Shown: in pieces, positions 31,401-51,634 of the stretch
Layout: each line of letters starts with the position of its first letter
Numbering within the stretch: position 1 is the first letter of the stretch
Virus record (IMG/VR): IMGVR_UViG_3300002835_000122
Location: 1-64,000 of that record
From: a virus
Lineage: Duplodnaviria > Caudoviricetes
Reading direction: 5' to 3' (one strand)
Length of the DNA: 64,000 bases
Notes under the pieces: model-generated
The model's database searches: none
What the model was told of the DNA's origin: nothing
The model's input: only the letters and a program-made list of their open reading frames with translations
Program-made: the position numbers and the translations under genes

Positions 31401-34400
31401 GTCTCCTCCTAGGAATTGTGCAAATCCCGTTCCATTTCCAGGATAAATATTTCTTTTATATAATTCAAGATCTACCTCTGCGCAAAAGTTGGACATTAGT
31501 TGTCCCATACTTGTCATTATGGTGCCGTCTCCAAAAAATGTACTAACGGGATTTCTTTGGAATATATTTGTTGATAATTTAAATGTTGCTGCATTAGCTG
31601 CTCCGCCCAAGTCACCCCGTCCCACATTGGAGTAGGCATTGGAAACAACATTTCTCAGTCCATCGGCTCTTTGTTTTTCAACTTCGTTAATTGGTTCATA
31701 TAGCATTGTGCCGAAGTGTCTAATTCCAAAACGATTCTCGGAAAATATAGTTCCATTTGTTGCTCTAGCTAAAGCCTCTCTTGTTCTGGATGCGCCCATG
31801 CTCAAAAGCCTAACCATTAAATCTCTTGGTTCAGAAAGATACATTCCAGTATCTACTCCACCATCAATTTTTCCAGAGTCACCCTTTTTATTTGTTGAGT
31901 TAACAATAGCGCCAAGTTCAATTGCGTCAGATTGGGCAGTGACAGTAACTATTTCGCCTTCTTCAACGTTGGTTATGACTCCGTTAAACAAAGTTTGCAA
32001 AGAATTTGGATTTGATCCATAGCCTCCTCTGAGGTGAACTCTAACTCCTGGCTTTAATCTTATATTATTAATATCAACTACGTAGTCATTTCTCATTCCT
32101 GAGACAATATTTTTAGCTACATTTAAAGTCCTGTCTAAGATAGCGCTAATTCCATCCGCATAGCTCAACGGATCGCTATTGAAGTCGTCATTTCGCGCAT
32201 TAAATATATCTGTAGATGGGCGTGTTGTTAATTTTGAGTACATATTTGAGACTCTTAATATTAAGGTATCTCCCAGTAAATCTTCAGATGATACAACTGA
32301 AAAATCTATAACAGATTGAAGACCATAGAAATTATCAAAAAGTTTGACTCCTGCAAACATTCCCCCTTCGTCTATCAGCCATAACATGTAGGTCGGAAAT
32401 GCTCTAAGCATTCGGCCAGATATGTCTCTGTACTGAACATCATTTAACATCTTTTCCATGTGATTATTAAATGAGCCGTCGTAAGCTTTTTGGTATTCAG
32501 ACAATGGCTGAGCTCCACTAATTCCAGTCAAAGATTTATCACAACCAACGTCTGGAGTTTGCATGTCTTTCGTGTAATTGCTTTCAATTTTTTTTGCGCC
32601 ATCAGATTCAATTTTAACATTAGTTCCATCTGCTGTCAGATAAAATCTTCCATTATCTTTATTTATATATCCGAAATGGGACCCCAAAACGGTATACATA
32701 ATTGCAGGTATCTCTTTAGGGTCATTTACTTCTGGATTAGCTAGTGGCATCAAATATATCATTTTATGAAATTCAACTTCGTCTGGATCAAAACTGACAG
32801 ATTCCTCTTCGGCCAGTTTGCTAGTCGCTAATATAGTTTTAATCATATTTTCTGTCGCTGCATTTGTCACCCCCACATTTCCTATGACAAATGGTGATCC
32901 ATTAATTTCTTCAAAAACTGGGTCCGCCTCAGAGGATTGCGAAGCTAGAAATAGGTAATCAGTTAACAGAGTACTTTTTGAAACGTCAGCGTTTGCTTCG
33001 TTAATTACTTGTTGAAAGATAGAAACAAAATTATGTGGACTAATTCCAGATTGATTTACGTAATCTATTATTTCGTTAATTAAATCTTCGTTAGTCTGTA
33101 CTCTTGCGTCTACTGCGGCTGCGTTAGTTGCGTTAGTTACTGAATATCTTCTAAGGAAATTCCTAACTGTATTTTTTACAGATTCAATTTTTTGTTCAAT
33201 TGCATCGGCTGATCCCTTAAAGAAGTCATCAGAGCTATCAAAAGTGAAATTTTTAGTTAAATCTATCTGGATAGTGGTATTATTTATGATATCGCGATCA
33301 AACATTTCAAAACTTCTAAAATAGAAATCTGGATCTAGATTGCCAACGATATCTCCTTCCGTATTTTTGACGCCCAATGGAAGGTCTGGATAGGCGTTAA
33401 ACGATCCCCATAGCTGCTTCATTCTCAGGAAAGGGTTTCTCTTTGTACCAAAATGCTCAATCAATTCCGTCTGTTGCTTTGAGGACATTTTTTCTCTTTG
33501 CTGTTGGAATATATCAAAGTCCACTAAGCTCAACTGTACTGCATAGACATGAGGAAAGTTGGGTATGGTGTCAACCTTATAGTTAAGGGGAAGAACATAT
33601 TTGATTCCGCATAAAGCTGTTATGATATTTTTTATTCCTAGAAATCCTATAACACCAGTAGAGTGCTCAAGTCTAGCTAACGCATTAGTATGATCAAATA
33701 CTGATCTAATTTTTAATAATTCTTTTTCGCCAAAAACAGTCATCGATATATTAATGTAACTGTCCTTGCCCCCAATGTACTGATAACTTGGTTCGTCTTG
33801 CATTTGGATCTGTAGCTTTGCTAGATTATTCCCCATTGATATACTAACGCCATTTACTATGGCGGTCTTTGGGTCAAGATCTACTCGATTCATTGGAACT
33901 TCCCACTCATTGAACTGGTAGTCTCCATCTTTTAATCTTGTTGCTTCCATCATATTTTTGATGAAGCCGTCAGTAAAAAATCTTTCATACAGATTGACCT
34001 GAAAGGCTTCAGTAACTTGCTGTGCAATTTTTTCTCTATCTGGTTCTACTCCAGCGCTTTGTGTCTGTCTGACAAATTCCTCATCAATAAGTTTTTCCAA
34101 AATAGTTCCAGACGAACTAGCTCTTTTGTGAAGTTCTTTTTTGATATTGTTTAAACTACCCTGAGCTAATATTCCATCAAAAAAGTATGACTCTGCCGTA
34201 CTAGGGTATTGTTCGAAGTAACCGTTTACTCCCCGAAGTTCTATCTTTTCTTGATAATCTAAGAACCATCTTTTTTCTTCATTATCTAATCTTGTATTGT
34301 TATTAGATATAAACGATTGCGCTAGGTAAAGGTAAACTTTTTTATATTGATCAGTAGTCGAGATGCCAGCTGTCAAAATATCAATTGCACCTTTAGCCAT

Positions 34401-36650
34401 ATTATTGATAGATTTCGGAAAGTTTGATTCGGTAGCCATTGAAGCAATATCTTTAATATCTTTTATTAAAGGAGTCTCCAAAGTTCTTTCTATTCCAAAT
34501 GAATTAAGAAGTTTATCCCATAGGCCGGAAGCTGTATCGTTTAATATTTTTTCTTGTTCACTTCTAAAGGAAGTGTTGTCTGGTAAGAATATTTTTGTCT
34601 GTGTCTCAGCCGGAGTAAATAAAGTTATATTACTTCCGTCTCTCCATTGTGAGATAATATTAGTTGATAACACATCATTTTCAAAAGAATTTTTTCTTTC
34701 GAATTCAAAATCTTCCTGCTGTTCCATTAAACCAGATACGTCTACACCTATATGTGTTCCATAGTCAATCACATCCACGTTAGCTGTGTCCGAAGGCTTA
34801 TTGTCAGACGTCTTTAATAGGAAGCTTTCATTGACATATTTGTGCATTTCTCCAGCGGCTTTGCCCATATACTGACGATATTTACCCCAGTGTATCGCCT
34901 GATTAAAATCTTTTAACATCGGCAGGAATGGCTTGTGATTAAAGTGGACCATTTCCAAATCAATGACTAAAGCAAATGGATAATTTGGAACTGTTGATAC
35001 TGACATATTGGAAAGTCCAACAGCAGTAATTCCATGTATTGAGTTAAGGTATTGGTTTTTTATTGGTAATATTGGCGAGTACTTAAAGGCTGCAACCAAA
35101 CCCCTGAGAGAAGAAAGAAATTTATCTATTTTTGCTTCATCATCTCCACCATTTTTGAAGTTAATTGTAAAGCTTTCGTCTAGACTTATTGTTGCCGCGT
35201 TGTCTATTGACAAGCCCCATATCTCTTCATAGTTAGGAAAGAAGAGCCGCATAGAAATAATAGTTTCCTTATAACCTGCGTTAAACTTAGGAGTATTTTT
35301 TTGTCTAATAGCTCCACCAGTTAATGATCCTGTTTTGTAATTAGAATTAACACTAATTGAAATCGGAGGAACGTAGAAATTTGCCGCGCCTAATCGAAGA
35401 TGAAACATATCTGGTTTTCTAGGTGGAATGTTTTCCCTAAAAGGAAAATCTTCAATTGCTTTTTTAATTTGTTGTGCGGTATTTTTTATCTGAAAAGCCA
35501 AGGTAAATATTGGCCTATTATCTTTGGTGACTCCAAAAGCTCTTTCTAAAGATATAATTGCATCGGCTTCATTATTCAGTGTGTCTTCTGATCCACCACC
35601 TTGACCGTTATTGGAGTAGTCTCCGACTGCTGCTAGAGCATCAAAGACAAAGGTAACTAGGCCTGGAAAATAAAAATTAATTATTGAAAATGATATTGGA
35701 TCTTTTTGAAGATTATAAACTACTTCACTTAATAATGTTAACCACGGCGTATCTATTGCCGGATCAATATATTCATCTATTGATCTTTTAACTGTTGCAA
35801 CACTCTGCAGTCTTTTTTTTGCAAAATTGCTCATTTCATACGCAAATGATGCTAGATAAAGTAGTCCTGTAGACTCCAACTTTGAGTAAACGCTTTTTGT
35901 TGCATCTTCGTTTAAAGTTGCAACATCGTTGTTGCTATTAGTTGAAAGAACCCTTAGCGCCTTAATTCTAACTTCTTGACTTGCACTACCCCCTCTTGTG
36001 TATTCGAAGAATCCGTCTACTGCAGATTCTACATCCATACTGCTACTAGCTCTGAATATAAAATTACGAATATTTGCATAAGCTTGATCTTCACTGTAAT
36101 TATCTTCTAATTCTTTTTCATCTTCAGAAGATCTAGATTGCTCAGCGTTAGATATTTCAATTAGAACTGTGTCATCAATATCTCTTCCATTTGCAGTGGT
36201 ATTCCATAGTTGCAATCTGGATAATACTTTACCTGCTAAAAGCTTTGTGGTATTGGGATAATAGCCAGAGTATGCATAATTTGCAATGAAATGATAGATT
36301 ACGGCATCTTCGCTGCCTAGATTCGGATTAGGAATGTTGATTGAATTTTCGACATAAGTATTGTATTCCGGTACGACGATTGATGTCTCCGTAGGTATTC
36401 CAAATATAAAAGTAGAAACGGCTATTCTATAGGCAACTAATGAATAGTTATCGTTTTCACCATACTCAAGAAGGTTTTTACCCTTATATTCATGTACAGC
36501 TAAACCACCTGGCGAACCATCATTAAAAAATCGAGATAATTTATCAGCACTGGTGCTTGGATCCGATAGTAATTGTGTTACCTCTTCATATAAGCTAGGA
36601 TGCTCAACAATGTATTTTAGTACATTTTTAGATATTGTATTAATTGCCAT
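25452..36650 (-). CDS. Giant baseplate hub protein (gp27-like) with RlpA-like barrel and C-terminal SNase domain (3732 aa)
   Basis: Hub motifs RLKPGVRVHLRGGYG...LFNGVIT and IGNPDIRPHDLVYL...GIFEVEQVVHHF; YIAMRWPY...RRVLV..PLTGRAVV barrel; KDGDTF...VRFDGINTGET...DRVLG...SLNWELV nuclease. Confidence 0.75.
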   Translation of the reverse strand: MAINTISKNVLKYIVEHPSLYEEVTQLLSDPSTSADKLSRFFNDGSPGGLAVHEYKGKNLLEYGENDNYSLVAYRIAVSTFIFGIPTETSIVVPEYNTYVENSINIPNPNLGSEDAVIYHFIANYAYSGYYPNTTKLLAGKVLSRLQLWNTTANGRDIDDTVLIEISNAEQSRSSEDEKELEDNYSEDQAYANIRNFIFRASSSMDVESAVDGFFEYTRGGSASQEVRIKALRVLSTNSNNDVATLNEDATKSVYSKLESTGLLYLASFAYEMSNFAKKRLQSVATVKRSIDEYIDPAIDTPWLTLLSEVVYNLQKDPISFSIINFYFPGLVTFVFDALAAVGDYSNNGQGGGSEDTLNNEADAIISLERAFGVTKDNRPIFTLAFQIKNTAQQIKKAIEDFPFRENIPPRKPDMFHLRLGAANFYVPPISISVNSNYKTGSLTGGAIRQKNTPKFNAGYKETIISMRLFFPNYEEIWGLSIDNAATISLDESFTINFKNGGDDEAKIDKFLSSLRGLVAAFKYSPILPIKNQYLNSIHGITAVGLSNMSVSTVPNYPFALVIDLEMVHFNHKPFLPMLKDFNQAIHWGKYRQYMGKAAGEMHKYVNESFLLKTSDNKPSDTANVDVIDYGTHIGVDVSGLMEQQEDFEFERKNSFENDVLSTNIISQWRDGSNITLFTPAETQTKIFLPDNTSFRSEQEKILNDTASGLWDKLLNSFGIERTLETPLIKDIKDIASMATESNFPKSINNMAKGAIDILTAGISTTDQYKKVYLYLAQSFISNNNTRLDNEEKRWFLDYQEKIELRGVNGYFEQYPSTAESYFFDGILAQGSLNNIKKELHKRASSSGTILEKLIDEEFVRQTQSAGVEPDREKIAQQVTEAFQVNLYERFFTDGFIKNMMEATRLKDGDYQFNEWEVPMNRVDLDPKTAIVNGVSISMGNNLAKLQIQMQDEPSYQYIGGKDSYINISMTVFGEKELLKIRSVFDHTNALARLEHSTGVIGFLGIKNIITALCGIKYVLPLNYKVDTIPNFPHVYAVQLSLVDFDIFQQQREKMSSKQQTELIEHFGTKRNPFLRMKQLWGSFNAYPDLPLGVKNTEGDIVGNLDPDFYFRSFEMFDRDIINNTTIQIDLTKNFTFDSSDDFFKGSADAIEQKIESVKNTVRNFLRRYSVTNATNAAAVDARVQTNEDLINEIIDYVNQSGISPHNFVSIFQQVINEANADVSKSTLLTDYLFLASQSSEADPVFEEINGSPFVIGNVGVTNAATENMIKTILATSKLAEEESVSFDPDEVEFHKMIYLMPLANPEVNDPKEIPAIMYTVLGSHFGYINKDNGRFYLTADGTNVKIESDGAKKIESNYTKDMQTPDVGCDKSLTGISGAQPLSEYQKAYDGSFNNHMEKMLNDVQYRDISGRMLRAFPTYMLWLIDEGGMFAGVKLFDNFYGLQSVIDFSVVSSEDLLGDTLILRVSNMYSKLTTRPSTDIFNARNDDFNSDPLSYADGISAILDRTLNVAKNIVSGMRNDYVVDINNIRLKPGVRVHLRGGYGSNPNSLQTLFNGVITNVEEGEIVTVTAQSDAIELGAIVNSTNKKGDSGKIDGGVDTGMYLSEPRDLMVRLLSMGASRTREALARATNGTIFSENRFGIRHFGTMLYEPINEVEKQRADGLRNVVSNAYSNVGRGDLGGAANAATFKLSTNIFQRNPVSTFFGDGTIMTSMGQLMSNFCAEVDLELYKRNIYPGNGTGFAQFLGGDLDDGWSTASSLVEDDGKTLAGQRYLEAGTDRSWNRLITEAQNGSVSSSNTIDSIVEDNKLVSAEGRAGAVKNVLLGGLTAGIAAIPGVNAVAGLAGGGALMGLLRGRGGTNVFRTMGIISPNADDDLSGFDEVSFRAQTYMRTVWDLFQICARLLPNYIVAVRPFEDRSTIFYGKPHWLYTSGVVPVTTGFPSVKKANELDLPGYPKHRSADEDIQMVMDNVNRQANSLADYEAFKRSSELSDFMATLAKDQASSTGIYAPTKRLTGKLLNFNSQLATKRVSKDADGNNIILSQLPVSAGTVKMGFHLPIGGEKTYASITQEHKQIENIPPRFQYPYYTISEDTILDKKSYEVRDGGLFGEYLSDIGGNQASGTSNVVDLLGFGGWLSPLTPIAKIIDSAEDGDSNEARLSNMSKRQNLQERFSEAALKSFSTGGAALSANLIYFLQLEAEFLNEAKITIKPSSGNLELDRPLGFSSLLVTIDSGVSDLISLNKTVYSKMPLPSVYSQNIPTDFQTVNSVVASSGDNKDDFSFEYELSQPISYEEWGSPATKEEEMFYIAMRWPYKPDTVDASLEKFKQVYKFEDLYGSAADYKKRRVLVFSPLTGRAVVCAPAYFLWGEGDDDVDAVVSPDAAWYLGTFVSTIDDKIAADGSQLAESLPAWANILLHDRADTGNSLLEKIEAETGLSTFPRDVDCFFGFVPDDTPLGVVSSAAAPVKRFFNDADKNSYIIGFGNFAIDDNGDANKFTASKTSLDIGNMSQYPADAAERYLKNSDSSLEEYSATNSEVTSYSYEYGGNILASGDNPSYFQAIVDLNYDALDKGELYKRLDAELLTTGNEETGSGRVGFAPVYSAMDGISVEARSFYDENYDPNVSVIAGNGRTLSQAADIWDQFRFGYHTYDSVKAIFTRHYGLDADSTDPFPKEFKRILGASSNTPFQNFSQSTVSIPGLSATDGTGVDELAILLGSDFFNEPDTTTDLGSGVGFSGASSRIEAVEFIRKNYIDYESKGIRGDAGIIQYFNSVISRSLDGIRLNFFESKVINNALSISIENKEDPAAAIKLAEVINTPKQLFLLMVGLFRQKLWSTGYGRAWLVLKPDRKRGIITAGGGGEDGQWSFKPVDKVFEAFISPYSQYSKDESKFLKLLVSTKGEGSNSSTFIGGIDEDIGDFYSANIGPILGAIGDGLSSLLGMFKLSMMQMGYALSEVGNFSKQAHILNKVLNDSIYYSLGRPGSLLRAVDNPFTREYGEPVIEIRQPFQRIHYLSSFSHIISNQIQENLNNVSTVITAVSDGKNPVTVALDKGAPSERQTETTVETGLYYDNMIGSGFLGVLHPFMHPLETFRGYAKTLQGTPDELSARRIALSHLKESIKDIYGGELTLIGNPDIRPHDLVYLSDVYNRMYGIFEVEQVVHHFTSEMGYITTVTPNALVTVNDPSRWFMSSWLHSWLSMQNMRNDTRFYMDNIMASNTGINMGGNISVDALADSLSTQMIGGIQYTHGSSALMKDIMANQTALSLPDKARQEIESKGQGKASGTDTVMQVVGVSVARAVPIVGQLAWKGWTWLRDNVLDQHGCYVQYLNKNGQPMDAGLSYNQGMVVGRYHTKALLPGILGTRTKVKTADGNTFIRSDDLLKSLGWQETEIKDLVRYTDYENALTHARVLSLTGLGPEKANLQTSLFKVIVTVTTFKDGDTFDVEDVISGARFTVRFDGINTGETSLTKVGSIPNEPGADGTTISPISTPGGRAMLYTEAKIKNRVFVLRIKVTNRADTNVIFEAQFEPGATENRLQNYTKDVFDRVLGTVWYYQPESMINQIKDFVNQCFMLNRGKTIVTTDMDNPVTKEFFGKDFPGLGSLYKESPIFIKRSNIFDKIKSLDIQYAPPLSLSISALDDYGIPEQEFNRFYNDLVCFKVLEATYNKVDEWPTIFWDEYYEDGHPVSLNWELVANNLATVYTKQLLIESQSVISAEESALIPKQVTLNPGT

Positions 36651-36659
36651 TGTACTTTC

Positions 36660-37109
36660 CTATTTAAACATCATATTGTTACGAATAATAGTTCTAAGTC
36701 TATCACTTGAAGAGTCTTTCATTGTAACAGAAGTATAGTTATCTATTATACTAGACTTTGTTTCTGTTTTGAATGAATCTAGAGTAAAATTTTGTTTTTT
36801 TGTTTGCAGGTCCTTATTGTACCTAGCTTGCTGATGTCTTTTTCCGCTATATCCACTACCATTCATCTGGATATGCGCACTTGGGGCATTGTCTAGTCCC
36901 TCTTTGGAATATTTGATTTTGTCAGATTTCCCTGATGCCTGCATTTTTTGACGCGATTCACCAATCACATTTTGCGATGGGGTTTTGCTTGAGACTATCT
37001 TTGCTGCGTATTTGCTTGCCGTTAAGGATCTATGGGACGTATCTTTAGGCTGTTTGGCAGCAGCGCTTAGGGCTTTATTTTGGTCCTTGACATTTAAAAT
37101 CATATACAT
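36660..37109 (-). CDS. Small basic hypothetical protein (149 aa)
   Basis: Lys/Ser-rich ORF filling the gap between the 1593-aa gene and the hub gene. Confidence 0.55.
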   Translation of the reverse strand: MYMILNVKDQNKALSAAAKQPKDTSHRSLTASKYAAKIVSSKTPSQNVIGESRQKMQASGKSDKIKYSKEGLDNAPSAHIQMNGSGYSGKRHQQARYNKDLQTKKQNFTLDSFKTETKSSIIDNYTSVTMKDSSSDRLRTIIRNNMMFK

Positions 37110-37115
37110 TCAACC

Positions 37116-40100
37116 TTAATAAGATCGGGCCATCGATTGATATGGGTCTCTTGCCACATCCGGGATTCTATTATACATAGTACTGTTAATGTTCCCATTA
37201 GTGAGTCCTGATGCTGCTGCACTAAATTTTTGTATTTGATCTCTATCGCCAAATAAGGAAACCTTATAATTCATGCCCGCAGTAAAACCTTGACCTCTTG
37301 CCTGCGGAATTTCTGACAATCTTTTTGGATAGTCAGACTCATAGGCTGATCCTCCTGGCAAAAGCGGTGGACCGGACATGGCTTCCTGCGTATGATCTTT
37401 TTTGTTTTGATATAAAAAGCTAGCTGCTACAGCTATTCCAGTAGCTATCGCTGCATTGCGAACTCCGGGTTTAGCAAACTGCTCTGCTAGATATTGTTTG
37501 TTCATTCTTTTGTACATTGATTCCGAGGCAGTTGATTTCTTTACTTTTGACAGATCTCTGAGAGTATCTGCAACAACTCCAGGAGTTGTTTCTGTTATAT
37601 CATCTGCGGATTTAAGAATATTACTTGAAGCTAAATCTCCGTTTAAAAAGGCTGCAGCTTCCTTATCCAGCTGTGCATTTACTTCAAATATAGTTTTATT
37701 TTTTAACGCTCTAGCTATTTGCTGCTCGTCCATAGAGCCTGGTCCTTGATCAACTTTACCTTTTATAAGTGATGAAATAACGGAAGAATTATTGTCTGTT
37801 CCAAAAAAGCCATCTGCAAAATCTAGGTCCAATACATCTTCCATAATACCTGCTTTTTGGGCGTTGGACAATCGATTTTGAGTAAAAATATCATCAATAT
37901 ATTGTCTTAGTTGAAGGTTCTTAGTTGACTTTTCGTATGTAGCCTTTTGTTCTGACATTTTCATATATCTACTAAGGAGATTAAGGCTTTCATTGTCTAT
38001 ATTTGTTGATGCGTCTGGAAGTTTTGTAAAAAACTCTGGAGCTATTTTTCTTTTTAATCCGCCATATTGAAGGGCGCTAGTCATTTCGTACCCAGATATG
38101 CCCATTGATTTTTGAACTTGTTGAAGATTCTCTAGTAAATTAGTTCCCAATTCTACTTTTCTTATTTCTAATGCTACTCTCGATGCCTCTGGAGCGAAGC
38201 CACTTTCTATCTCGTCAGCTAAACTTTGCACTGCTTTTATTCCTGCTTGATTTTCGTCTAATATTTTTTCTGCTGCAATTCGTGATCTTTCACTTGTTCT
38301 AGATATCAGTTCTTGTTCTTGGGTGATCTGGGCATTTCGCCCTAGTCTCGCCATTGCTTCTAAATAATAGTTTGAAGTATTAGCTACATCTATTATTTTA
38401 GAAAGAGAACCTTTGGCTATAATTCCTCTAGCTCTTAGGACTTCTTCTATCTTCTCATATTGCTTAGATGTTACGGCTTCATTAATATCGGTCAAGTCTG
38501 CAGTGTTATCTGCTTCAAACATTCCTGCTGATAGCTCTTCTGCGAAATTTATAAGATCATTTTGATTCATTTTTCCACTAACTAAGAGGGCTTCATCTAG
38601 TATGAGTTCAGCGCCGTGTTTTTGTTTTAAATAGCCAAACATTTTTCCATACTGTTTTATTGTTTTGTCGCCAAAATCATTTAGGTTAGTTTCTTTTCCA
38701 TACAATTCTTCTAGTACTTTTGCCCCTAAGTTTGGATCCATGTTCGCAAGCTTGGTAGTTTCTTGCAGTAGCATTCGTCCAGATGTAAAAGTTTGTGTCA
38801 TGTCAATGACGGTTTCAGCTGGAGTAAAAGCTAACATTAGCTTCTTACTTATTAGGTCTTGTTGTATGCCAGGAATTGTCCCTAGTATATCTTCCATCTG
38901 CCTAAGGCCATGTCCGACCACAGTAGCTCTATTAATGTACTGTCCAAGGATATTTGTATTTTCTATTGCTGAGTCAATGCTTTTACTTATGAAGGTCTTT
39001 CCTAGTGCAGATTGCAGTTGCTCCGGGCTAATCTTTAATGCATTGACTGTATCGTAAAACTTTTTTGATAGGTCTTTTATCTGATCTTGAGATATAGAGC
39101 TTCCGCTTCTTAATCTGTTTAATTCTTTTGTCATTTGTTGAAGTTGACTTTTTTGCGATCCACTTATTATGCCCTCTAGGCCTGATAAGACTTCTTCTTC
39201 GAGTGGCATTTCTGCCACTTTTGCCACTAGCCTCTGGAACCCAAGTGACATTAGTCCTGGATCTTGGTCACCTAAAGCGATTAATTTTGTTGCAGAAAGA
39301 TTCTCTATTCTATTTTCGCCTGATTTTAATACTCCCAGTTTTTGAAAAAAGTTTCTATTGAAATCTCGCATGATTCCGCCGCTTAATCGATCATTAACAT
39401 CAATGGTCAGTTGTTCTAGTCTATCCATCATCTTTTCATTAAAGAAATCGTCTGACATGCCCATCTTATGAGTTAATGGGTTGATTCCTTGAAGCGAAGT
39501 GGATAACAGTTTGTATTTCTCATCTTCTTTAGCCATCTCATTTAAAGTCTTCATAAAGAATCTATTGCCACCAAATATTTCACGATAGCTTTCTATATCT
39601 TCAAATCTAGTAAGGCCGATAACTTCACCCATTGAAGTAGGTTGACGTACCATAGCGGCACCTAGTCTGCGCTTACCTTCGGACATATATGTACCCAATA
39701 TGGGCAATCCCTTATCGTCTAAGTCGAAACCACCAAGTGCGTGATAGAACTTTCTAATATCATTTTCGTGGAATAAAATATTGTGATTAGAAACTCTAAA
39801 CTTTACGATATCGGCAGAGATTTCATCACCAGCTTCACCTATTTTTACACCCATCATTGGCTTTCCTGACAATATCCTTGTTCTGTCGATATCAATTGAC
39901 TTTCCTGATAGCGTCTTTCTTCCGGTGGTTCCAGTCATTGCATTTGCTTCCGAGTTAAGAGCAAATCTGTACACATCACCAACCACTGGAAGTCTTTGTC
40001 CATTTTTTGTCTTATACAACTCAGCTTCATAGTATTTTTTTAATAGGTTTAAATATTCTGGAGAATCATTAATGCTTATGCCACTTCTATGTAGATCTAA

Positions 40101-41897
40101 AATTCTTTGCGCAAAGTCTCTGTTTAACATTTTTGAAAATTGTTGAGGTTCCGTAAAGTGTTCTATGTCTTGTTGTGCTAGCTGCTTGATTCCTTCCAAA
40201 ACCTTGCTGTCATCCGTCAATCGACCAGTTTCCAATATACCCCTAAACTCGTTAAGCACATTATCTCGATAGGCTTGAGCCAGTTTCATATCTTCTGTGT
40301 TTCCAAATATTGCATCATGGAAAGCGGCGAGCATTGGGTCCATGTATACTCTAGAGGTGGATTCAGCTAATCCGCTTAGATTTAAGACAGGAGTACCAGC
40401 TGCTATTCCTGTGTCTTTCTTTAGTCCACTAATTGATGTTATGATTGCATATTTATCAAATCTTTTTGAAAAATTCTGAAATTGAGCCGCTGACTTTCCG
40501 GAATAGTTTGTTCCCCCAATTTCCACAGAACTTCTAACCGTAACCTGAGATAAACCTATAGCCTCTCCGTCTTTTCCTATCTTTAGCTCAGACAACTGCC
40601 TTCTTAATTCAACTTTACGAATCATTGACGCTTCATCTCTACTATTATCTAGGCTCTCCAATTCTTTTTTTATGGCTAGCCTAAGATTCGCTCCATGCCT
40701 TATGTTTATTAGAGATGAACCATCTCGACCTTTTTCTAATTCATCCAGTAGGCTCTTAATGACTTCTTGTGTATTACCATCATATTTTTCTGAATTCTTT
40801 AAGAACTCTTTCATTTTACTAGTGCCGAATACTCCCTCGGCTGCGTCTAAGTTTCCATCTCTAATAGTCTCCGTCACAAGATCTCTTAATGAATTATTTA
40901 TTTTATTAAAATCTAAACCTGACATACTTTTTTTACGTGATTCAATTATTTCCTTTAATACTTCATCAACATAACTTTTTGCTTCTTCAACTGCTGTTCC
41001 GCCACCCTTATACTGAAAAGATTCTTTCATAAATGCTCTTACGTCAAATTGTTTTGTTCCATCGGCAAAGTTCTTAGCGGTGTCCTGATCAAAACCTAAG
41101 GCTATTGTCTCAAAAACACTGTCCATAGCAAGAGTTGCTTGTGAGAATTCTTTGGCTATATCTGCAGACGCAGTAGACATAGGCTTACCCAGGAAAGACT
41201 TCATAAGGTCTCCGGCTATGGAAATATCTCTTGTAGAAAGAATGCCCTTTAATCTTTTTGGAAGCTTTGCAAACAGTTTAGATAGCCCTGCATTTCCGCC
41301 TCTCAATGCCTCTTCTAGTTCGTCTGGAGTGAATAGAGGTCTTCCGCCTTTGGACATTGCTTCTAGGGTTTCCTCCATTGATAATATTCGATCACCCTGG
41401 CGAAGACTAAGTGCCATTCCACCCTCATCAGTAGGAAATATTAATCCAGCGTTTTGATTTTTCATGTCCTGAAGGAATTTTCCAATACTTGTAGAGCCAG
41501 CTTCTGCTTTATGAATTTTGATTTGAGCACCGTATTGCTGATCTCCAGTCAACTTTAGTGCTTCATTAATATCCATGAGCACCTGCCCGTAACCCCTGTA
41601 CGTGGAAGGGCCAAGAGTTCCTGGCTCAATGTTTACCATTTCGGTCAATCCAAAGCTAGATACATACTCCGCAACCTTTTCTATTGAATCGGATATGAAC
41701 TGTGCTGATTGGCCTGCCTTTAGCCTTAGGGGGTCAAAGTAGGTTGATTTAAATTTTAACTTTCCGTCAACATTAACAACTTCTATCAATCCCTTTTGGC
41801 CAAGATAGCTTTTACTTAAAGCCTGTTTGGCTAAAAGTAATTGTCTCTCCATTGGCATGGGAGATAGGTACGACTGAATATAATCAGATACAGACAT
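37116..41897 (-). CDS. Putative virion-associated single-subunit two-barrel RNA polymerase-like protein (1593 aa)
   Basis: Ordered motifs RDGSSLIN, SQVTVR..SGKS, IITSISGLKK, ILFH...LGGFDLDDK, RQPT..GEV, LGQYINR, ETVIDM; TAATG-coupled to the tape-measure gene. Confidence 0.6.
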   Translation of the reverse strand: MSVSDYIQSYLSPMPMERQLLLAKQALSKSYLGQKGLIEVVNVDGKLKFKSTYFDPLRLKAGQSAQFISDSIEKVAEYVSSFGLTEMVNIEPGTLGPSTYRGYGQVLMDINEALKLTGDQQYGAQIKIHKAEAGSTSIGKFLQDMKNQNAGLIFPTDEGGMALSLRQGDRILSMEETLEAMSKGGRPLFTPDELEEALRGGNAGLSKLFAKLPKRLKGILSTRDISIAGDLMKSFLGKPMSTASADIAKEFSQATLAMDSVFETIALGFDQDTAKNFADGTKQFDVRAFMKESFQYKGGGTAVEEAKSYVDEVLKEIIESRKKSMSGLDFNKINNSLRDLVTETIRDGNLDAAEGVFGTSKMKEFLKNSEKYDGNTQEVIKSLLDELEKGRDGSSLINIRHGANLRLAIKKELESLDNSRDEASMIRKVELRRQLSELKIGKDGEAIGLSQVTVRSSVEIGGTNYSGKSAAQFQNFSKRFDKYAIITSISGLKKDTGIAAGTPVLNLSGLAESTSRVYMDPMLAAFHDAIFGNTEDMKLAQAYRDNVLNEFRGILETGRLTDDSKVLEGIKQLAQQDIEHFTEPQQFSKMLNRDFAQRILDLHRSGISINDSPEYLNLLKKYYEAELYKTKNGQRLPVVGDVYRFALNSEANAMTGTTGRKTLSGKSIDIDRTRILSGKPMMGVKIGEAGDEISADIVKFRVSNHNILFHENDIRKFYHALGGFDLDDKGLPILGTYMSEGKRRLGAAMVRQPTSMGEVIGLTRFEDIESYREIFGGNRFFMKTLNEMAKEDEKYKLLSTSLQGINPLTHKMGMSDDFFNEKMMDRLEQLTIDVNDRLSGGIMRDFNRNFFQKLGVLKSGENRIENLSATKLIALGDQDPGLMSLGFQRLVAKVAEMPLEEEVLSGLEGIISGSQKSQLQQMTKELNRLRSGSSISQDQIKDLSKKFYDTVNALKISPEQLQSALGKTFISKSIDSAIENTNILGQYINRATVVGHGLRQMEDILGTIPGIQQDLISKKLMLAFTPAETVIDMTQTFTSGRMLLQETTKLANMDPNLGAKVLEELYGKETNLNDFGDKTIKQYGKMFGYLKQKHGAELILDEALLVSGKMNQNDLINFAEELSAGMFEADNTADLTDINEAVTSKQYEKIEEVLRARGIIAKGSLSKIIDVANTSNYYLEAMARLGRNAQITQEQELISRTSERSRIAAEKILDENQAGIKAVQSLADEIESGFAPEASRVALEIRKVELGTNLLENLQQVQKSMGISGYEMTSALQYGGLKRKIAPEFFTKLPDASTNIDNESLNLLSRYMKMSEQKATYEKSTKNLQLRQYIDDIFTQNRLSNAQKAGIMEDVLDLDFADGFFGTDNNSSVISSLIKGKVDQGPGSMDEQQIARALKNKTIFEVNAQLDKEAAAFLNGDLASSNILKSADDITETTPGVVADTLRDLSKVKKSTASESMYKRMNKQYLAEQFAKPGVRNAAIATGIAVAASFLYQNKKDHTQEAMSGPPLLPGGSAYESDYPKRLSEIPQARGQGFTAGMNYKVSLFGDRDQIQKFSAAASGLTNGNINSTMYNRIPDVARDPYQSMARSY

Positions 41898-44800
41898 TAT
41901 CTAACACCGGCATTAATATCAATTTGCTCCGATCCAAAAGGATTCATAACTGGAATAACAGACCCTGATACTCCCATGCCACTCATGAGTGATCTCAATC
42001 TTGATGCGGTGTCTGTTTGAGATCCAGATCCACCACCAAATCTAGGATAGCTAGGATTAGATAAACTAGCTTCTTGTAGCTGTTGAGGATAGTAACCCAT
42101 TTGCGACATTTCTAGACCCATACTTTGACCAATTTTTATTTTAACTTGATCCATACTAGTGTTTGGGTGCCAACCCTCCCAGCTTTCATCTGGTAGTTCA
42201 TGTCTAGCAAAGTAGTCACTTAACTCTGGCCTCTTCTCTACATCCATACCCCAGGCTGCTTCATATATTCTTCTTTCAAGCCTTCCTGCTGTATCTAATA
42301 TTCTTTTTCTTTCCTCTACAGGAGCATTAATCATAGCTTTAAAATGTTCTCTTTTTCTTTTGGGTATAGATAGAGAAAGCGATTCTATATCAGTTCCATA
42401 TTTACCTGAATTTATATCTTCTATTGGAGCGCCGTACATTGTTCTCTTAGCGGCTGATTCATACTGGAAGGCTGCTCCTTTATCTCCAGCCATGTTAGCC
42501 ATCTTAGCTAATCTAGTATTTTTAGTATAATTTAAGATGTCTGCGTATTCTTCGAGCGCAAGTTCTTTTTTTCTAGTTCTAGGCATAAACTGTTCTCCAG
42601 TGATGGCCTCATTCGCTGAATGAAATGATGAGACGGTAAGCCCTGTTATCGCTCCTAATGTGGACATCACCAATTTACCCTTAGAGGTTTCTCCAAAAAA
42701 TGAACCAGCTACTGCTAAGGTTGCCGTTGCAGCTATCGGGTTTCTATTTGCAGCCTTATTTATCATGGGTTCTATAAAGCTTTCGAATGGCCTTTGCCAT
42801 TCCGGGAAGGTTGCCCCGTATACGTTATTTCTTTCCCAATCCTCAGTCGCAGTTTGTTTGTTTATAAACTTCTTATTAATAAAAGTATCTCTATGGGCCA
42901 GCATTTCGCCCATCCTGCCAAGAGCGTGGAGATTTGGATTAATGCCCATTTGCTCTGGAGTACTATTCTTGTATTTATATTCAGTAAATTCTTTTTTCTG
43001 TTGTAATGACGCTGCTCGTTCTCTGAGCTCTTGAACCTTTAATCTATCTGCGGGGCCGTCCACCATCGAGTCTATGGTTTTATCTAGTGATCTGAATTGC
43101 TTGGAATACGGGGCAACATCGCCAAGTATCTTGTATTGATCCATAATTCCATAACGACCAGAGGCGTCAGAGCTAAGTCTATTTAATCTTTCGTAAGCTA
43201 CTCCAGGTAGTCTTAGTTCCCCTTCTGGGACTTTTGCAAACGGGTCACCTGTAGTGAAATCGGTAAAATATTCTGATCCAGGAAGAAATGGATATTGTCT
43301 TCCCATCGTATTTTTAATTGGGTTTATATAATCAACGCCAGATCTTTCTTTAGGTATAAATCTTCTTGTTATTTCAGAAAACTCTATAGAACCTATTTGA
43401 CCTCCACCTAACATGGGAACGTCTCCTAGGCCTCCTAGATTCAGATCCCAGAATTGTCTTCCAGTTCCATATGCCTTAGAAGCTGATTGTAGTACTGATC
43501 TTTGAGGTGTAAAATCTCTTTGGCCTAATCCAAAACTTTCTCGCATACTGCTTGCTGCGAAACCATAAATTCCTAACATTTCTTGAGCTCTGTACCCAAA
43601 TTCTTGTGCTTGGATTTGCGGATTGCCAACACTCAACGGACTGCCAGCGGGTACGATTCGTTGAGGCATGATTCCAGGTACTTTAGGTGGGCCATAAGCC
43701 ATCTGCATGTATTGATTATTTATTCCTGATATTGTATTTCTAGTTTCATTCCTTGCCGTGTTAAGAGATCCAGCCCTTCCGGCTAACATTGCGTTAGAAG
43801 ACGCCTGTGCGCCGTTTGGAGGGCCTCCAAAGCCACCCATGGCCATTCCACCAGCGACTCCGCCCATACCGCCGAAAACGCCACCTCTACCACTAATGTA
43901 TGGATCTGCATTGTATGCTCCAGATTGACCGGCTGGCACATAATTAGCTAAGCCGGCTGCTACTTCCTGCTGGTGCATCATTGTTTGAGGTTTTAATATT
44001 TTGCCGACAGTAGCATTTAAGGCTGGAACAAGCGGTCCGAATGGTCCACTGAAATATTCGCCCGATACAGGATATGGTCTATCTTCAAAATGCTTCCGCT
44101 CATAGCGATATGGATCAAATGGTCTAAGCGGAGAAATGTCAGTATGGAACAATGCTCTTTCTATTGGGCTCCCCATATTATCTGAGGTAAACATTGCTCC
44201 AGCTTCTAATTTTCTGTATATACTTGGGCGGTAATACATAATTTTTCCACCCATAAATGGAGTATTGCCTAACGGCCAAAACCGACCTTGTCTAATGGCG
44301 ACTTCGCCCTCAAATAATTGTTCTTTCTTTTCTTCAAAATTCATTCCACCGGGAGTAATCCCAGAACCAAGAGCTTGTAAATTTCCTACTGCTTTAGCAG
44401 CTCCGCCGATGAAGAATGGCGAGTAAACTCTTTCTCCTCTATCATCCTTTTCGTTTACCATGCCACCGATAGTTCTGTCAGCCGTCATTATCCCTAGGCC
44501 AGCGCCATATAGTGGCAGAACTCTTTTGGTCACCATTCCACTTGTAAATAAGCTTAAGGGAGAACCATATTGTGAAACATCAAGTTGTAGGCCAATGGTT
44601 CCAAAGTATTTATTTAACCTATCAATACTATGTGACACTGCTGTGGATGCACTGGAGTAGCTTTCTCGGCTACTGTAGGTGTTAATGCCTGTAACACTTT
44701 TCAGTGCGCCTAGTGGATTTCTAGCAAAAACGGTTCCAAAAGTTGGAACTAAAAGAGCATCAGAGCCTGGGCCCATAGATGAACCAAGAACGTCAGTAGC

Positions 44801-47800
44801 TGATTCCGATATTCGGTAAGGTGATGTGCTAAGTCTTGGGTATAATGCTTTTTTAATTAATCCAGACTTTCCCACTTCTCCTATTCTTTGTGAGGTTCCA
44901 GTAATGAAAGGATCTAGTAAACCTCCAGCACCTTTGTCTCCAGCTTCTCTGAGAACATCTGTGGCGTTTCTTAATGCACCTCTTTGTACTGCTAATTCAC
45001 TCAGCCCAGCTTTATTAGCTCTCATGGAACTTAAGTTGAATAATGTTGAGAGTCCGGCAGCTTGTGCTTCTGCTAGTTGACCAGGTGGCAGCTGTTTAGC
45101 CATTGAGGTAATAATTTCATTCATCTGAATAAAAGTATTAGAAAAATTTCGCCCTGCTGCACCGGCTGAGCTCGATGCCAATAGCTCATTTCTTTGAACT
45201 AGATATTTATATATCTCGTCTTTAAGTGCATCTTCCCTTGTTAATATTGATGGGCTTGTCGATCTGATATGAGATCCCGAAAGTAAGTCATCTTTTTCTA
45301 AAAGCCTTCTAACTCTTTCGCCCATTTGATATAGGGTCTGAGTTTCGTAACCCATCTTTCCTATTGTTGAAGCGTCGTGCTTTGCTGCCTGAAGCACATC
45401 GTGAGCAAACTTCTGAGTATCTTGAATATTATTAAGTGAAGAAACTCTTCTACCATTGAACAATCCTATGCCGGCATCCTCGAGGCGCGTCATTATTTTT
45501 CTAGGCATTGCGCTCTTAAAAGATTGTTCTCTGAAGTTTTCAAATGCCCTTAGCATTTGTCCTTCGGTGATCATTTCCTGCTTAGTTCCTGGAGACACAG
45601 CTGTAGCTGCGCCAGTATCATCTGCAAAGTTTAATTTGAACTGCTTGCCTTTAACTTCCACTGTTTCGTTTTTAAGAAGGCGCGCAAAAAAAGCTGGGTT
45701 TTCTGGATCAGTTTTTCTTTTTGCAAATCTCGACAGCATCCGGCCTATTGAATTGGGTTGCTCATAATCAATGTCAAATCTCTGCCTGAGAGCCAGTTCT
45801 CTTTCTGGGCTAACTCCAAGCCTCTTTAGTAGATTTGATCTATTTTTTCCATCAGCAAATTCTATTTCGTTAAGCGACTTAGCCTTACGCTCTGAGGCTG
45901 CATTTCTAGCAGACCTCGAAAGCATTTCGTTACTTCTTCTTGAAAGTGGCCTGTAGAAACCTTGTAGCTCCTTTGCTTCGAATTCATCCGTAAGCGATCC
46001 CTGCTTAAAGGCCATTACATTGCTTTTACTTTTACCTCCACCATATGATAAAAAGAAGTCTGCGCCTTCTTCTCCCTTGGGAAGGAAGGGTTGAGATATC
46101 TTGCCCTGTTGTATTTGAAAAAATGTGCGTCCTGACATTTCATCAAACGAACCCTTTCCAAACATTCGTGCTGGATTAAAGTTAACTATAGGAATCTTTA
46201 AATCATTGGCTAAAAAGTTGCCAACGTTTGATACAGATTCTTTTAATCCAGAAAAATCTAATACATTTCCAGATCGAGTAGTATATATTCCTTTCATTAC
46301 GGAAACGCTAGATGATGTAGTCGTCGGATCCGCTAAGGCCATCCTCTTGGAAATTTCACCAAGTGCGACTTGTTCTTCTGCCCTGAGACCTGTAAATAGA
46401 CCTTTGCTAACTCCCTCGTCTAGAGTCATAGCTTTCAGGCCAAATACATTAAAACCGCTACTAAATATACCTGTACTTATTTGTTTTTCTCTGACCAAAA
46501 AACTTCTTAGGCCATCCAAATTGTCGGTATCTAAACCTCTTTTTCCTAACCTTTCAGCCAGTATTGCGTTAGATACCTCTCTGCCATTTGCATCCTTTAA
46601 ATTAATACCTAATCTTTGTGCTGATCTTTTAATTAGAAAATCTTTTTGGGAAACTGATAGATTATTTAAGTCCGCAAAGTCTTCGAAGTTGGCTTTTTTA
46701 GTTTTTAGAACTTTTGCTGCTGCTCGAGGAATTCCATTTTCTAGTAAAGAGTTCCATCCCTTTTGTGCCTTTGACATTATTGCGGCTTGAAATTCTTTTC
46801 CTTCAAATATTCTATTAGTATTTTCTATAGATGTTTTCAGGGCGTCTGTACTAAGAAAGCCTCCCTCAATCGGATCATCTACTGTTGTTGAAAATCTTTT
46901 TAATATTTCATTAAAAGCGTCATCGCCTTCTTTGATGATTTTAGTTTTGCCAATAGTTACTTTTCTGCTAGTTTCCGTAGCTGAACTACTAACGCTTATG
47001 TCATCTATAAATTTTTCTAAAGTTTCAGAAAATTTCTGTCGATTAGAATTAGGTGCTAAGTCTAATATTTGCCTTTGAAGTAGCCTCTTATATTCTAACT
47101 GCTCTATTGACCTATGGAACTCCGAACCACTGAACGACTTACTGCCGACTCCCCCGTCTCCTAGAGTAGCTATTCTATTAGCTAGTTTAGACGTTCCGCT
47201 GGAAAAGTTTGCCTGCACCGTCTTTATAATGCCCGTTAGATCATCAGATGTCATGCCATCTTTACGTAGTGCCCCGCCCTTACGTAGTGCTTCATCAAAG
47301 CTTAACGCTTTATTTACTACGTCATATCCAATTCCAGTTTCTCTGAATTTATTTACACCCTGATTGACTGCTCCGCCAATCCCTCTTAGTCCGGGTATTA
47401 AATCTACATAACCAAAATTGCCATCTGCTCCATCGCCAAATGCTAATCTTCGACCAAATATGGCAGCCCTTTTTAGGGTATTATCATCAGCAGAGTTTGC
47501 TAAGGCCTCTCTAGCTTTAGAGTTTCTTACGCTATGCAGGATTTGATTTATATTGGGTCGTTCTTGATAATACTTAGCAGTTGCTGCTCTAATGCCTGCT
47601 GAAGTTTGAGAAGAAACTTTTAAAGCCTGGTTTGTTATTTTGCCTAAATCATGACCAACCTCTCCAAGAATATCATCTAAGTCAGTAAATCTCTGAGCTG
47701 CTTTTGTCTTAAAGGAACTAACCCCAGACGACCTTGCGACATCTCCCATCGATTGTCTAAAGTTATGAAGAGATGATCTTGCGTTACCTGCTGCTGCACC

Positions 47801-48549: not shown

Positions 48550-49179
48550 TCAGCCTGAACCCCACAGCTTTTGAGCAATGGGGTCTTGATAAGCTGCTTC
48601 TCCTTCTTTCTTAGAAAGATTATGACGAGCAGCTGAAACTTTTTGTTTTTCTACTTCTTCTTGTGGGTCAATCAATTGCAAAGTCAAATTGGTTGGCTCC
48701 ATGCCATTCATGTTCTGTTTAATTTCAATTATTTTTTCTGAAAGAGCTACATTTTCAGCTAATTCAGAGAATGTCATATTCTCTAAATCATCTGGAGTAT
48801 ATGTAGATATAGTAGCGAGAACAAAGGCTTTCATTAAATTCTTAACTTCTGTAGCTTGATATCTTTTTTCTTCAAGAACGCTTTTAGCTAAGGATACGGT
48901 AAAGAAACCTGATATATCTAATATCTCTTGAGACAATGAAGAAACTGCCCCAGGAGGTATTGACATTAGGTCAAAATCTTCTGGATGGATAATAGCGTAT
49001 GACAAGATTAAGTCTTCCATATCTGCGGAAGAAAAACCATCCAAACCTTGTAGGTATAATATTTTATTATATTCTTTAAAGGTTAGTTCTCTAAAAACTA
49101 AAGATTGACCTTTAACGTCAACGCTGTAGATATTTCCATATTTACTTTTTAAAGCAAATACTAACTCTGGATCTATCAT
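48550..49179 (-). CDS. Tail assembly chaperone paralogue 2 (209 aa)
   Basis: LKSKYGNIY...LVFRELTFKEY...GAVSSLSQEILDISGF; between tube genes and the tape measure. Confidence 0.7.
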   Translation of the reverse strand: MIDPELVFALKSKYGNIYSVDVKGQSLVFRELTFKEYNKILYLQGLDGFSSADMEDLILSYAIIHPEDFDLMSIPPGAVSSLSQEILDISGFFTVSLAKSVLEEKRYQATEVKNLMKAFVLATISTYTPDDLENMTFSELAENVALSEKIIEIKQNMNGMEPTNLTLQLIDPQEEVEKQKVSAARHNLSKKEGEAAYQDPIAQKLWGSG

Positions 49180-49182
49180 ATG

Positions 49183-51562: not shown

Positions 51563-51573
51563 ATGTTTCTCCT

Positions 51574-51615
51574 AAAAATAAAAAGGTGCATGGAAGAAGC
51601 CTCCCATGCACCTTT
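51574..51615 (-). terminator. Rho-independent terminator after the major tail tube gene
   Basis: 12-bp inverted repeat AAAGGTGCATGG / CCATGCACCTTT followed on the minus strand by a T-rich tract. Confidence 0.85.
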
Positions 51616-51634
51616 CACATAAAATTACACTCTA

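Follow-up and report, generated by a model that had tools for sequence, protein, structure and literature searches.

The window analysed here is a stretch of viral DNA of 64,000 nucleotides (positions 1 to 64,000 of IMG/VR record IMGVR_UViG_3300002835_000122; Duplodnaviria, Caudoviricetes), that is, 64 kb of a 76-kb viral contig which CheckV rates as 36% complete, with nearly all genes on the minus strand. In its tail-gene module, at the position of the tape measure, an open reading frame (ORF) at 37116..41897(-) encodes a protein of 1,593 amino acids (aa), P0001. It is very probable that the middle of this protein is a nucleotide polymerase of the two-barrel type, whose active site is intact but rearranged. 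On balance, we favour reading the whole protein as a virion RNA polymerase (RNAP) that occupies the tape-measure slot and is ejected from the tail, the phage probably injecting its own transcription enzyme through this route. With virion RNA polymerases, phages can begin to transcribe independently of the host enzyme. To our knowledge, few delivery routes have been found for such polymerases, namely the capsid cargo of N4 and crAss-like phages, the multisubunit enzymes of phiKZ-like phages and the tape measure fusion of one Thermus siphovirus.

The fold of the central part was predicted for residues 330-1100 (model 1, predicted local distance difference test (pLDDT) score of 71.9) and for residues 385-800 (model 2, from an alignment of 63 sequences, pLDDT 85.4, predicted template modelling (pTM) score 0.81). 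The secondary structure of model 2 consists of two units, each made of a strand-strand-helix-strand element repeated twice, and its structural matches reach a Z of at most 7.3. When this model was compared with 48,161 representative chains, six chains exhibited a Z of at least 5, and the top five of these are single-chain two-barrel RNAPs: QDE-1 (7y7p_A, Z 7.1, root mean square deviation 4.6 A, 251 residues aligned), P74-26 gp62 (8f5m_A, Z 5.8, 202 aligned), P23-45 gp96 in two crystal forms (8h2m_A and 8h2n_A, Z 5.8 and 5.7, 148-154 residues) and maize RDR2 (7w84_A, Z 5.6, 234 aligned). After re-alignment of the Foldseek list of model 2, six QDE-1 entries showed Z values of 6.6-7.3, and phi14:2 gp66 a Z of 3.6 with 273 residues aligned. 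For model 1, Foldseek against the PDB gave QDE-1 as the best match, with RDR2 and phi14:2 gp66 further down. With VIA-align, model 1 presented long alignments to two-barrel RNAPs alone, i.e. QDE-1 (Z 7.0-7.2, 346-372 residues), a second QDE-1 orthologue, RDR2 (5.2-6.4) and P23-45 gp96 (5.2). Among predicted viral structures (BFVD), the matches were three uncharacterised phage proteins (E 1.6e-7 to 1.6e-5), followed by segments of crAss-like giant proteins.

A preliminary description of this DNA, made from its letters, had proposed an RNAP fold, and this proposal is upheld by the long structural matches, which are solely with QDE-1, plant RDR2, P23-45 gp96, P74-26 gp62 and phi14:2 gp66. The structure prediction and Foldseek comparison that it had called for gave a divided outcome, with QDE-1 as the top match and two-barrel RNAPs selected by Z, but with E-values that are not significant. 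The weight of the matches comes from their being exclusive to one superfamily, long and collinear. A prediction artefact, the protein being in fact unrelated to polymerases or a double-psi-barrel enzyme of another kind, for instance a tail-borne cell-wall lytic enzyme (MltA/RlpA/3D type), would agree with the modest Z, the non-significant Foldseek E, the lack of profile homology to polymerases and the lytic domains that tail proteins often have. We consider it highly improbable, because the matches span 200-270 residues over both barrels and are collinear, because the six chains out of 48,161 with a Z of at least 5 include five two-barrel RNAPs and no lytic transglycosylase, and because the conserved residues are distributed over both barrels as in polymerases.

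The active site of QDE-1, a dual DNA/RNA-templated enzyme, gives the reference for these residues (PMC9508822). In its barrel 1, D709 coordinates metal B through water, and Q736, R738, K743 and K767 hold the RNA 3' end and the nucleoside triphosphate (NTP) phosphates. Its barrel 2 carries the Asp triad D1007, D1009 and D1011 and the Pro-Gate R962-S-P964, where the Arg serves to bind 2'-OH groups and the Pro to sense the minor groove; the Pro-Gate Arg reads the 2'-OH in QDE-1, in Pol II and in E. coli RNAP. N795/Q797 contact the same template nucleotide as the Pro-Gate Ser, the bridge helix includes N1087 and R1091, and the trigger loop D1116. Excepting RxP, the family of the 1,593-aa protein presents counterparts in the QDE-1 order: D392; Q451 and R455; K468; K493; D725, D727 and D728; N989 and R990; and D1032. 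The basic residues and the fourth Asp of the beta-like barrel are present in the order and spacing of QDE-1 D709, R738, K743 and K767, with 25 residues from K468 to K493 and 24 from K743 to K767. By offsets between the aligned ranges (model residues 1-354 and QDE-1 703-1025), which are not a residue-level alignment, D392 falls at ~710, beside the catalytic D709, and the Asp loop at ~1012. Barrel 1 contains D392-G393, Q451/R455, K468, K493 and V517-Y-x-D520-P, and in model 2 a two-helix insertion (399-437) separates its strands 1 and 2. Judging from motif order, N989/R990 and D1032 are candidate counterparts of the bridge helix and the trigger loop. The DPxxxAF motif that ends barrel 1 would correspond, by its spacing from the conserved Lys, to QDE-1 N795/Q797. 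The seven peptide motifs of the preliminary description are all found in the 1,593-aa translation, at back-calculated positions within ~15 nucleotides (nt) of those it gave (Table 1), and the likeness to polymerase motifs that it saw in them is supported, as they correspond to residues defined as catalytic in QDE-1 (PMC9508822).

These residues are also the ones that the family retains. A word-index search found 51 relatives of the 1,593-aa protein, with identities down to 26%. A HMMER scan of 1.84 billion cluster representatives with a core-only alignment yielded 225 clusters (at 50% identity) with E <= 1e-3, of which 194 with E <= 1e-10. In IMG/VR, scanned with the patterns GGFDLDD and C-terminal GPPLLPGGS, 162 stretches were confirmed; the 68 distinct loci retained from them lie on contigs that reach 209.7 kb. 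As GGFDLDD was one of the two baits, these loci are biased towards the DLDD motif; two full-length loci reached through the C-terminal bait alone retain D-x-D-D (L059, FDLDD; L063, YDHDD). Conservation was counted after hmmalign of 192 family proteins to the core profile. D725, D727 and D728 are each invariant (186/186), as are R751, P753 and E758 (187/187 each), which answers positively the question whether DxDD and RQP are conserved across homologues. In barrel 1, D392 is present in 155/155, R455 in 154/164, K468 in 157/164 and K493 in 168/169, and further downstream N989 in 166/168 and D1032 in 164/164; R455, K468, R644 and R701 are conserved at 84-96%. The motifs of the preliminary description are the most conserved positions of a large family, far beyond chance.

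The metal loop of the 1,593-aa protein reads LGGFDLDDK, compared with GGADTDGDK in gp99 of Bacillus phage 0305phi8-36. Because of this comparison, the family loop is read as the canonical GG(x)DxDGDK loop minus the Gly before the third Asp. The DLDD in place of DxDxD that had been pointed out at this site is real. The second peculiarity concerns RxP, which lies 45 residues before the first Asp in QDE-1 and 43 before it in gp99. In the family, an invariant R751-Q-P753-(S/T)-x-x-x-E758 followed by a strand is found 23 residues after D728, and this segment resembles the canonical one (gp99, RSPLIHKSEAVVL; 1,593-aa protein, RQPTSMGEVIGL). The collinear segment, at ~655-692, varies in length, lacks any conserved residue and was modelled with the lowest confidence.

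In model 2, barrel 2 is made of strands 634-643 and 645-649, helix 650-653, strands 681-686, 693-703 and 706-709, helix 711-721 and strand 729-739, the sixth, with strand 681-686 being variable and of low confidence (pLDDT 51-58). The alignment with QDE-1 is collinear, from model residue 1 to 350-354 and from QDE-1 residue 703 to 1017-1025, and ends at strand 6 (729-739), as does the alignment with RDR2. A two-residue turn joins strand 6 to strand 742-752, which must therefore lie beside it; for the same reason RQP, at the end of this hairpin, would be beside the start of strand 6 and next to D728. Additional information was sought in a mean-field coupling analysis (218 sequences, effective number Meff 137, 393 columns), which is underpowered and of which the top cluster alone was used. 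It recovers the register of the barrel-1 hairpin, and the pairs 522-754, 523-754, 524-755 and 520-752 rank 2, 32, 58 and 101 of 75,466. These couplings would place the RQP loop against the DPxxxAF motif, in the inter-barrel cleft.

The preliminary description had stated that RxP comes after the catalytic loop and had explained this by a circular permutation. The order stands, RxP following the Asp loop with none conserved before it, but the permutation is not supported, as the barrel of the model is in canonical order. A permuted barrel 2, with the RxP strand as a true barrel strand now standing after the catalytic loop, would account for the resemblance of the RQPTSMGEV-strand to a canonical RxP-plus-next-strand, e.g. 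FRSPLIHKSEAVVL of gp99, and for the collinear third strand (681-686) having the lowest conservation and confidence within the barrel. It is nevertheless quite unlikely: six strands and both helices stand in canonical order through strand 6, the QDE-1 and RDR2 alignments are collinear up to that strand, strand 742-752 is tied to it by the two-residue turn, past helix 768-775 there is no more strand to finish a permuted half-barrel, and the couplings put the turn between strands 3 and 4 (691, 694, 695) next to K493-D495. We lean slightly towards a Pro-Gate function that has moved to a hairpin added after strand 6.

The position of the gene bears on how the polymerase would be used. Three giant ORFs, of 2,212, 1,593 and 3,732 aa, lie between the tube and baseplate genes. 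At the minus-strand junction, which reads ...GTT AGA TAATG TCT..., the stop of the upstream 2,212-aa ORF and the ATG of the 1,593-aa ORF share one base, so the TAATG coupling reported for these two genes is borne out. In Bacillus phage 0305phi8-36 the order is sheath/tube, chaperonins gp143/gp144, gp145, gp146, gp147 and a gpV-like gene; gp145 is a virion protein, gp146 (2,537 aa) was assigned as tape measure from tail length and was found in virions by mass spectrometry, and gp147 is the hub with lytic domains (PMC2147016). The 2,212-aa protein had been taken for the tape measure, an assignment that we do not retain: in a tblastn search against cultured phages it matches gp145 and relatives, at ~30% identity in pieces within residues 1304-2183 (36% of the query), and gp145 is placed between the chaperonins and the tape measure gp146. 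As gp145 precedes gp146, the 1,593-aa ORF itself falls in the tape-measure slot, after the chaperonin-like genes and before the hub, with a gp145 homologue intervening as in 0305phi8-36. The sheath gene also points to the 0305phi8-36 group. All 68 loci, many of which are truncated at a contig boundary, contain the 1,593-aa gene, a core gene of this conserved tail module, with its neighbours in one and the same order; 65 of them also have the 2,212-aa gene, 60 have the 149-aa gene, and the giant gene at the hub position is present in 58. The clade is that of large (~180-210 kb) contractile-tail phages, distant kin of 0305phi8-36.

With such a position, the protein could be mainly a structural tape-measure or tail-lumen protein, its polymerase-like core being a non-catalytic relic or a scaffold. 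The slot itself fits this explanation, and so do the lack of Cys and Trp in 1,593 residues, the conserved, anchor-like C-terminal tail and the named language-model neighbours in the ESM Atlas, which are tape measure families with scores of 0.82-0.85 (below 0.9, leads only). No Pfam or PHROGs tape measure family matched P0001. Relics lose their catalytic residues, yet at overall identities down to 20-25% this family has kept four Asp, two Lys, RxP, E758, N989 and D1032 unchanged or almost so, and the two roles are not exclusive, P23-45 gp96 having both. A purely structural protein is, therefore, very unlikely.

Among known systems, QDE-1 and plant RDR2 (PF05183) give the best structural matches over both barrels (Z 6.6-7.3 and 5.6-6.4) and share with the family the order of the barrel-1 Asp, Q/R and two Lys, the barrel-2 Asp loop, the N/R and the D. 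They differ from it by the lack of sequence similarity, by DxDGD instead of DxDD and by RxP 45 residues before the loop instead of 23 after it, whereas the 1,593-aa protein has the two-helix and four-helix insertions and is encoded in a phage tail module. Like the proposed enzyme, phi14:2 gp66, the capsid cargo of a podovirus, has both barrels in one chain, travels in the virion and is ejected; its alignment is long and collinear (273 residues, model 1-361 and gp66 956-1374), at a low Z of 3.6. SPbeta YonO has no solved structure among the matches. A tape measure that contains a polymerase has its precedent in P23-45 gp96, a siphovirus tape measure of 5,002 aa with a two-barrel virion RNAP (active fragment 327-1124) that transcribes pre-early genes, a DFDGD loop and a metallopeptidase domain. 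Its layout, with a dispensable N-terminal part of ~330 aa, a core of ~700-800 aa and a C-terminal part, is comparable to that of the 1,593-aa protein (~384 N-terminal residues, a core of ~650 and ~540 C-terminal residues), and its structural alignment (Z 5.7-5.8) continues past strand 6 to model residue 374. The 1,593-aa protein differs by its length, its DxDD, its lack of a peptidase match, of a strong hydrophobic segment and of sequence homology to gp96, and its contractile-tail module; the two would be analogous in architecture. The 0305phi8-36 lineage is the closest cultured one for the neighbouring tail genes and has gp146 in the same slot. It uses a single-chain two-barrel polymerase, as gp99, with a canonical RSP...DTDGD, is an RNA polymerase of the YonO/RdRP family, encoded by a separate early gene in the other genome arm (PMC2147016). 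It differs in that four near-complete relatives of the window's phage have no gp99-type gene and in that gp146 has no polymerase motifs. The published work consulted comprises PMC10770324, PMC9508822, PMC2147016 and PMC7824862. By sequence, the 1,593-aa family lies outside any described family.

Several points weigh against a tail-ejected polymerase. A link between the family and a known polymerase came from no sequence method: when the core alignment was compared by hhalign with 25 aligned sequences of the 0305phi8-36 gp99/PF05183 family, the probability was 0.13%. No cultured phage has the gene, as the 50,697 phage records searched by tblastn with P0001 contained no match. The structural evidence is of limited strength, the best Foldseek E against the PDB (0.012 for model 1, 0.37 for model 2) being non-significant and the Z of 5.6-7.3 'middling' by the tool's own calibration. 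The loop does not follow the literal DxDxD pattern, although its three carboxylates are kept, with the third one residue early (186/186), nor does a conserved RxP precede it, neither R nor P being conserved in residues 655-692. The placing of R751 with respect to the Asp loop comes from the hairpin geometry and from weak couplings. In 0305phi8-36, gp146, in the same slot, presents no homology to the 1,593-aa protein and no Asp motif. Finally, phage RNAPs too divergent for Pfam could have escaped the Pfam searches of the relatives described below. The search with PF00940 (T7-like RNAP) had an uninformative control.

The other sequence searches were likewise negative. On P0001, Pfam gave only DUF4460 (E 0.012, below the cut-off), with no PF05183 at E <= 1 and no peptidase; in 28 family members it gave scattered weak matches (64 families at E <= 10), PF05183 being absent among the matches listed. 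PHROGs contains no family for the 1,593-aa, 2,212-aa or 149-aa protein, and Pfam gave nothing for the four giant neighbour proteins. With phmmer and a profile search of the PDB sequences nothing relevant was found, the best match being a Helicobacter Tip-alpha-like chain (E 0.058) over a helical stretch, and hmmsearch with the family profiles gave no significant match to gp145, gp146, gp147 or gp99 of 0305phi8-36. When 36 ORFs of the window were scanned for a canonical DxDxD, none was present in the three giant tail-core proteins except DDDVD in the 3,732-aa protein. Each of the four relatives with 85-100% completeness has a single copy of the 1,593-aa family; in these genomes no match was found to PF00623 (the beta-prime barrel), whose control was detected in 14/14 genomes, nor to PF05183, for which the control, 0305phi8-36 gp99, scored E 1e-20.

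Starting from the conservation, predicted fold, gene position and synteny described above, we propose a scheme in which virion presence, ejection, RNA synthesis and choice of template are inferred. The central ~650 residues would form a single-chain two-barrel polymerase of the QDE-1/YonO/gp96 class. In barrel 1, with D392, Q451/R455, K468 and K493, the basic residues would keep the RNA 3' end and the phosphates of the NTP in place. Barrel 2 would provide the metal-binding D725-x-D727-D728, one residue shorter than DxDxD, and R751-Q-P753, on the added hairpin, would probably act as the Pro-Gate, reading the ribose 2'-OH and the minor groove. The protein would be assembled inside the tail lumen, either together with the tape measure or in its role, and tail contraction would expel it into the host, where, as the DNA follows, it would transcribe the first phage genes without host RNA polymerase. 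It is rather likely, from the gene position and one precedent, that the protein travels in the tail and is ejected. Transcription of early genes, the most economical function, is in our view an evenly balanced proposition.

The core could also be a two-barrel polymerase with another chemistry or product, making DNA or primers, copying RNA or producing short anti-defence oligonucleotides. A shortened metal loop and a displaced ribose-reading RxP, both invariant (186-187 proteins), would reflect such a change, the 2'-OH being recognised by the Pro-Gate Arg in QDE-1, Pol II and E. coli RNAP (PMC9508822), and the two-barrel class includes, besides the dual-template QDE-1, the archaeal DNA polymerase PolD. 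However, R751 and P753 are retained, which argues that sensing of the ribose and minor groove is kept, the remaining catalytic residues match those of RNA polymerases, and the one proven tail-fused relative is a transcriptase. We hold this alternative to be unlikely, and on balance keep to the tail-ejected RNA polymerase. A stronger statement, that the family is the first two-barrel one with a rewired active site, the Pro-Gate having left its ancestral turn between strands 3 and 4 for a new post-loop hairpin, DxDGD having become DxDD and the enzyme itself being the tape measure of a contractile tail, is tentative and rather doubtful. Within the literature searched, there was no DxDD polymerase loop and no tail-borne two-barrel polymerase beyond P23-45, with the limit that the 23 RNAP family alignments of PMC10770324 could include a DxDD family.

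Table 1. Position of the features of the 1,593-aa protein and of neighbouring genes in the window
Feature	Position	Strand	Basis or remark
Major capsid protein	61665-62729		PHROGs
Contractile sheath	52324-53562		PHROGs
Two small genes, 209 and 184 aa, in gp143/gp144 chaperonin position	48550..49737	-	Position; PHROGs matches of unknown function
2,212-aa gene, 0305phi8-36 gp145 homologue	41897..48535	-	tblastn; in 65/68 loci
N-terminal region, residues 1-384	40746..41897	-	Invariant K211, K214, R215 (LPKRLKG)
Motif RDGSSLIN	40704-40727	-	Back-calculated from translation
Barrel 1, beta-subunit-like double-psi beta-barrel, residues ~392-520	40338..40724	-	Model secondary structure and conservation
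Motif SQVTVR	from 40550	-	Back-calculated from translation
Motif IITSISGLKK	from 40445	-	Back-calculated from translation
Four-helix insertion between barrels, residues 521-627	40017..40337	-	Conserved HxSG606, N617
Barrel 2, beta-prime-like double-psi beta-barrel, residues 628-739	39681..40016	-	Model secondary structure
Motif NILFHENDIRKFYHALGGFDLDDK	39711-39785	-	Back-calculated from translation
Putative metal-binding loop G722-G-F-D725-L-D727-D728	39714..39734	-	Invariance; comparison with gp99 and QDE-1
Extra beta-hairpin after strand 6	39609..39674	-	Strand 742-752, loop R751-Q-P753-T-S-M-G-E758, strand 759-763
Motif MVRQPTSMGEV	39621-39653	-	Back-calculated from translation
Helical region, L984-G-x-Y-x-N989-R990 and E1028-x-x-I-D1032	38802..38948	-	Conservation; helices in the 330-1100 model
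Motif LGQYINR	38928-38948	-	Back-calculated from translation
Motif ETVIDMTQT	38790-38816	-	Back-calculated from translation
C-terminal region, residues 1051-1593	37119..38747	-	Mildly hydrophobic segment ~1480-1500
149-aa and 3,732-aa genes downstream	25452..37109	-	Giant one in hub gp147 position; no Pfam match
Baseplate wedge protein	20564-21733		PHROGs

Outside the core, no domain was recognised in residues 1-384 by Pfam or PHROGs. The C-terminal tail is nearly invariant, with GPPLLPGGSAYE (1509-1520) ... DPYQS.A.SY, and no segment of the protein rises above the Kyte-Doolittle threshold of 1.6. Cys and Trp are both absent from the 1,593-aa protein, and Cys from the 2,212-aa protein. Several relatives (L027, L028, L033 and L038; L054 and L064; L051 and L060) have the gene divided over two or three frames that overlap. 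In L027, L028, L033 and L038 (~11.8-12.3 kb, from different samples) the frame shifts at one shared place after barrel 2, at ~residue 790, and the closely related L040 has a single intact frame of 1,594 aa. In the complete genome of one relative, G001, the gene is in three pieces of 628, 421 and 437 aa. Such split frames could correspond to a real subunit split, a programmed frameshift or a recurrent sequencing error.

Two further regions of the window are of note. At 50777-52297(-), paralogous proteins of 220 and 261 aa match PHROG 9206, 'major head protein'. The homologous ORF140 and ORF141 of 0305phi8-36 carry the same product name, with the notes 'tail tube' and 'tail tube paralog'; because of these notes, the PHROG label looks like an inherited mis-annotation and the two would be tube proteins. 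At 9850-12624(-), a 924-aa protein resembles endolysin PHROGs in its first 60 residues, which match their cell-wall-binding end (E 1e-6); this suggests a tail-associated peptidoglycan binder.

Candidate early promoters were searched for in G001, whose polymerase-like protein is 28% identical to that of the window. TTTATGRCTAG is present there in 16 forward-strand copies, compared with 1 for the reversed control, and 15 copies lie within 136.9-148.8 kb on the plus strand (L077-L078). Most copies follow GC-rich, terminator-like hairpins, 50-100 nt before small genes and past the point of transcription divergence. This array looks like phage-specific early promoters. RNAalifold yielded no shared hairpin, and the motif is at background in G000 and G002-G004; being specific to G001, it was not used as evidence for the window. 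In the same genome, (A/T)TTACTAT(A/T) is found 20-50 nt before the start codons of many minus-strand structural genes (e.g. at 25102, 78353, 92844, 96833 and 104130).

If the protein is what we propose, a widespread, uncultured clade of ~200-kb contractile-tail phages (225 clusters, 162 IMG/VR stretches) uses a two-barrel polymerase from the tail slot, encoded by a gene that escaped Pfam, PHROGs and profile comparison. An enzyme that serves as tape measure would have to pass the tail tube and to fold or assemble in the host before transcribing. The invariant DxDD together with the out-of-order RxP constitutes a natural experiment on where the universal RNA polymerase active site tolerates displacement or shortening of its parts, and the rewiring, if true, could change sugar or template selectivity. 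With its ~650 residues, the polymerase core of the family is also a compact object for structural and biochemical work.

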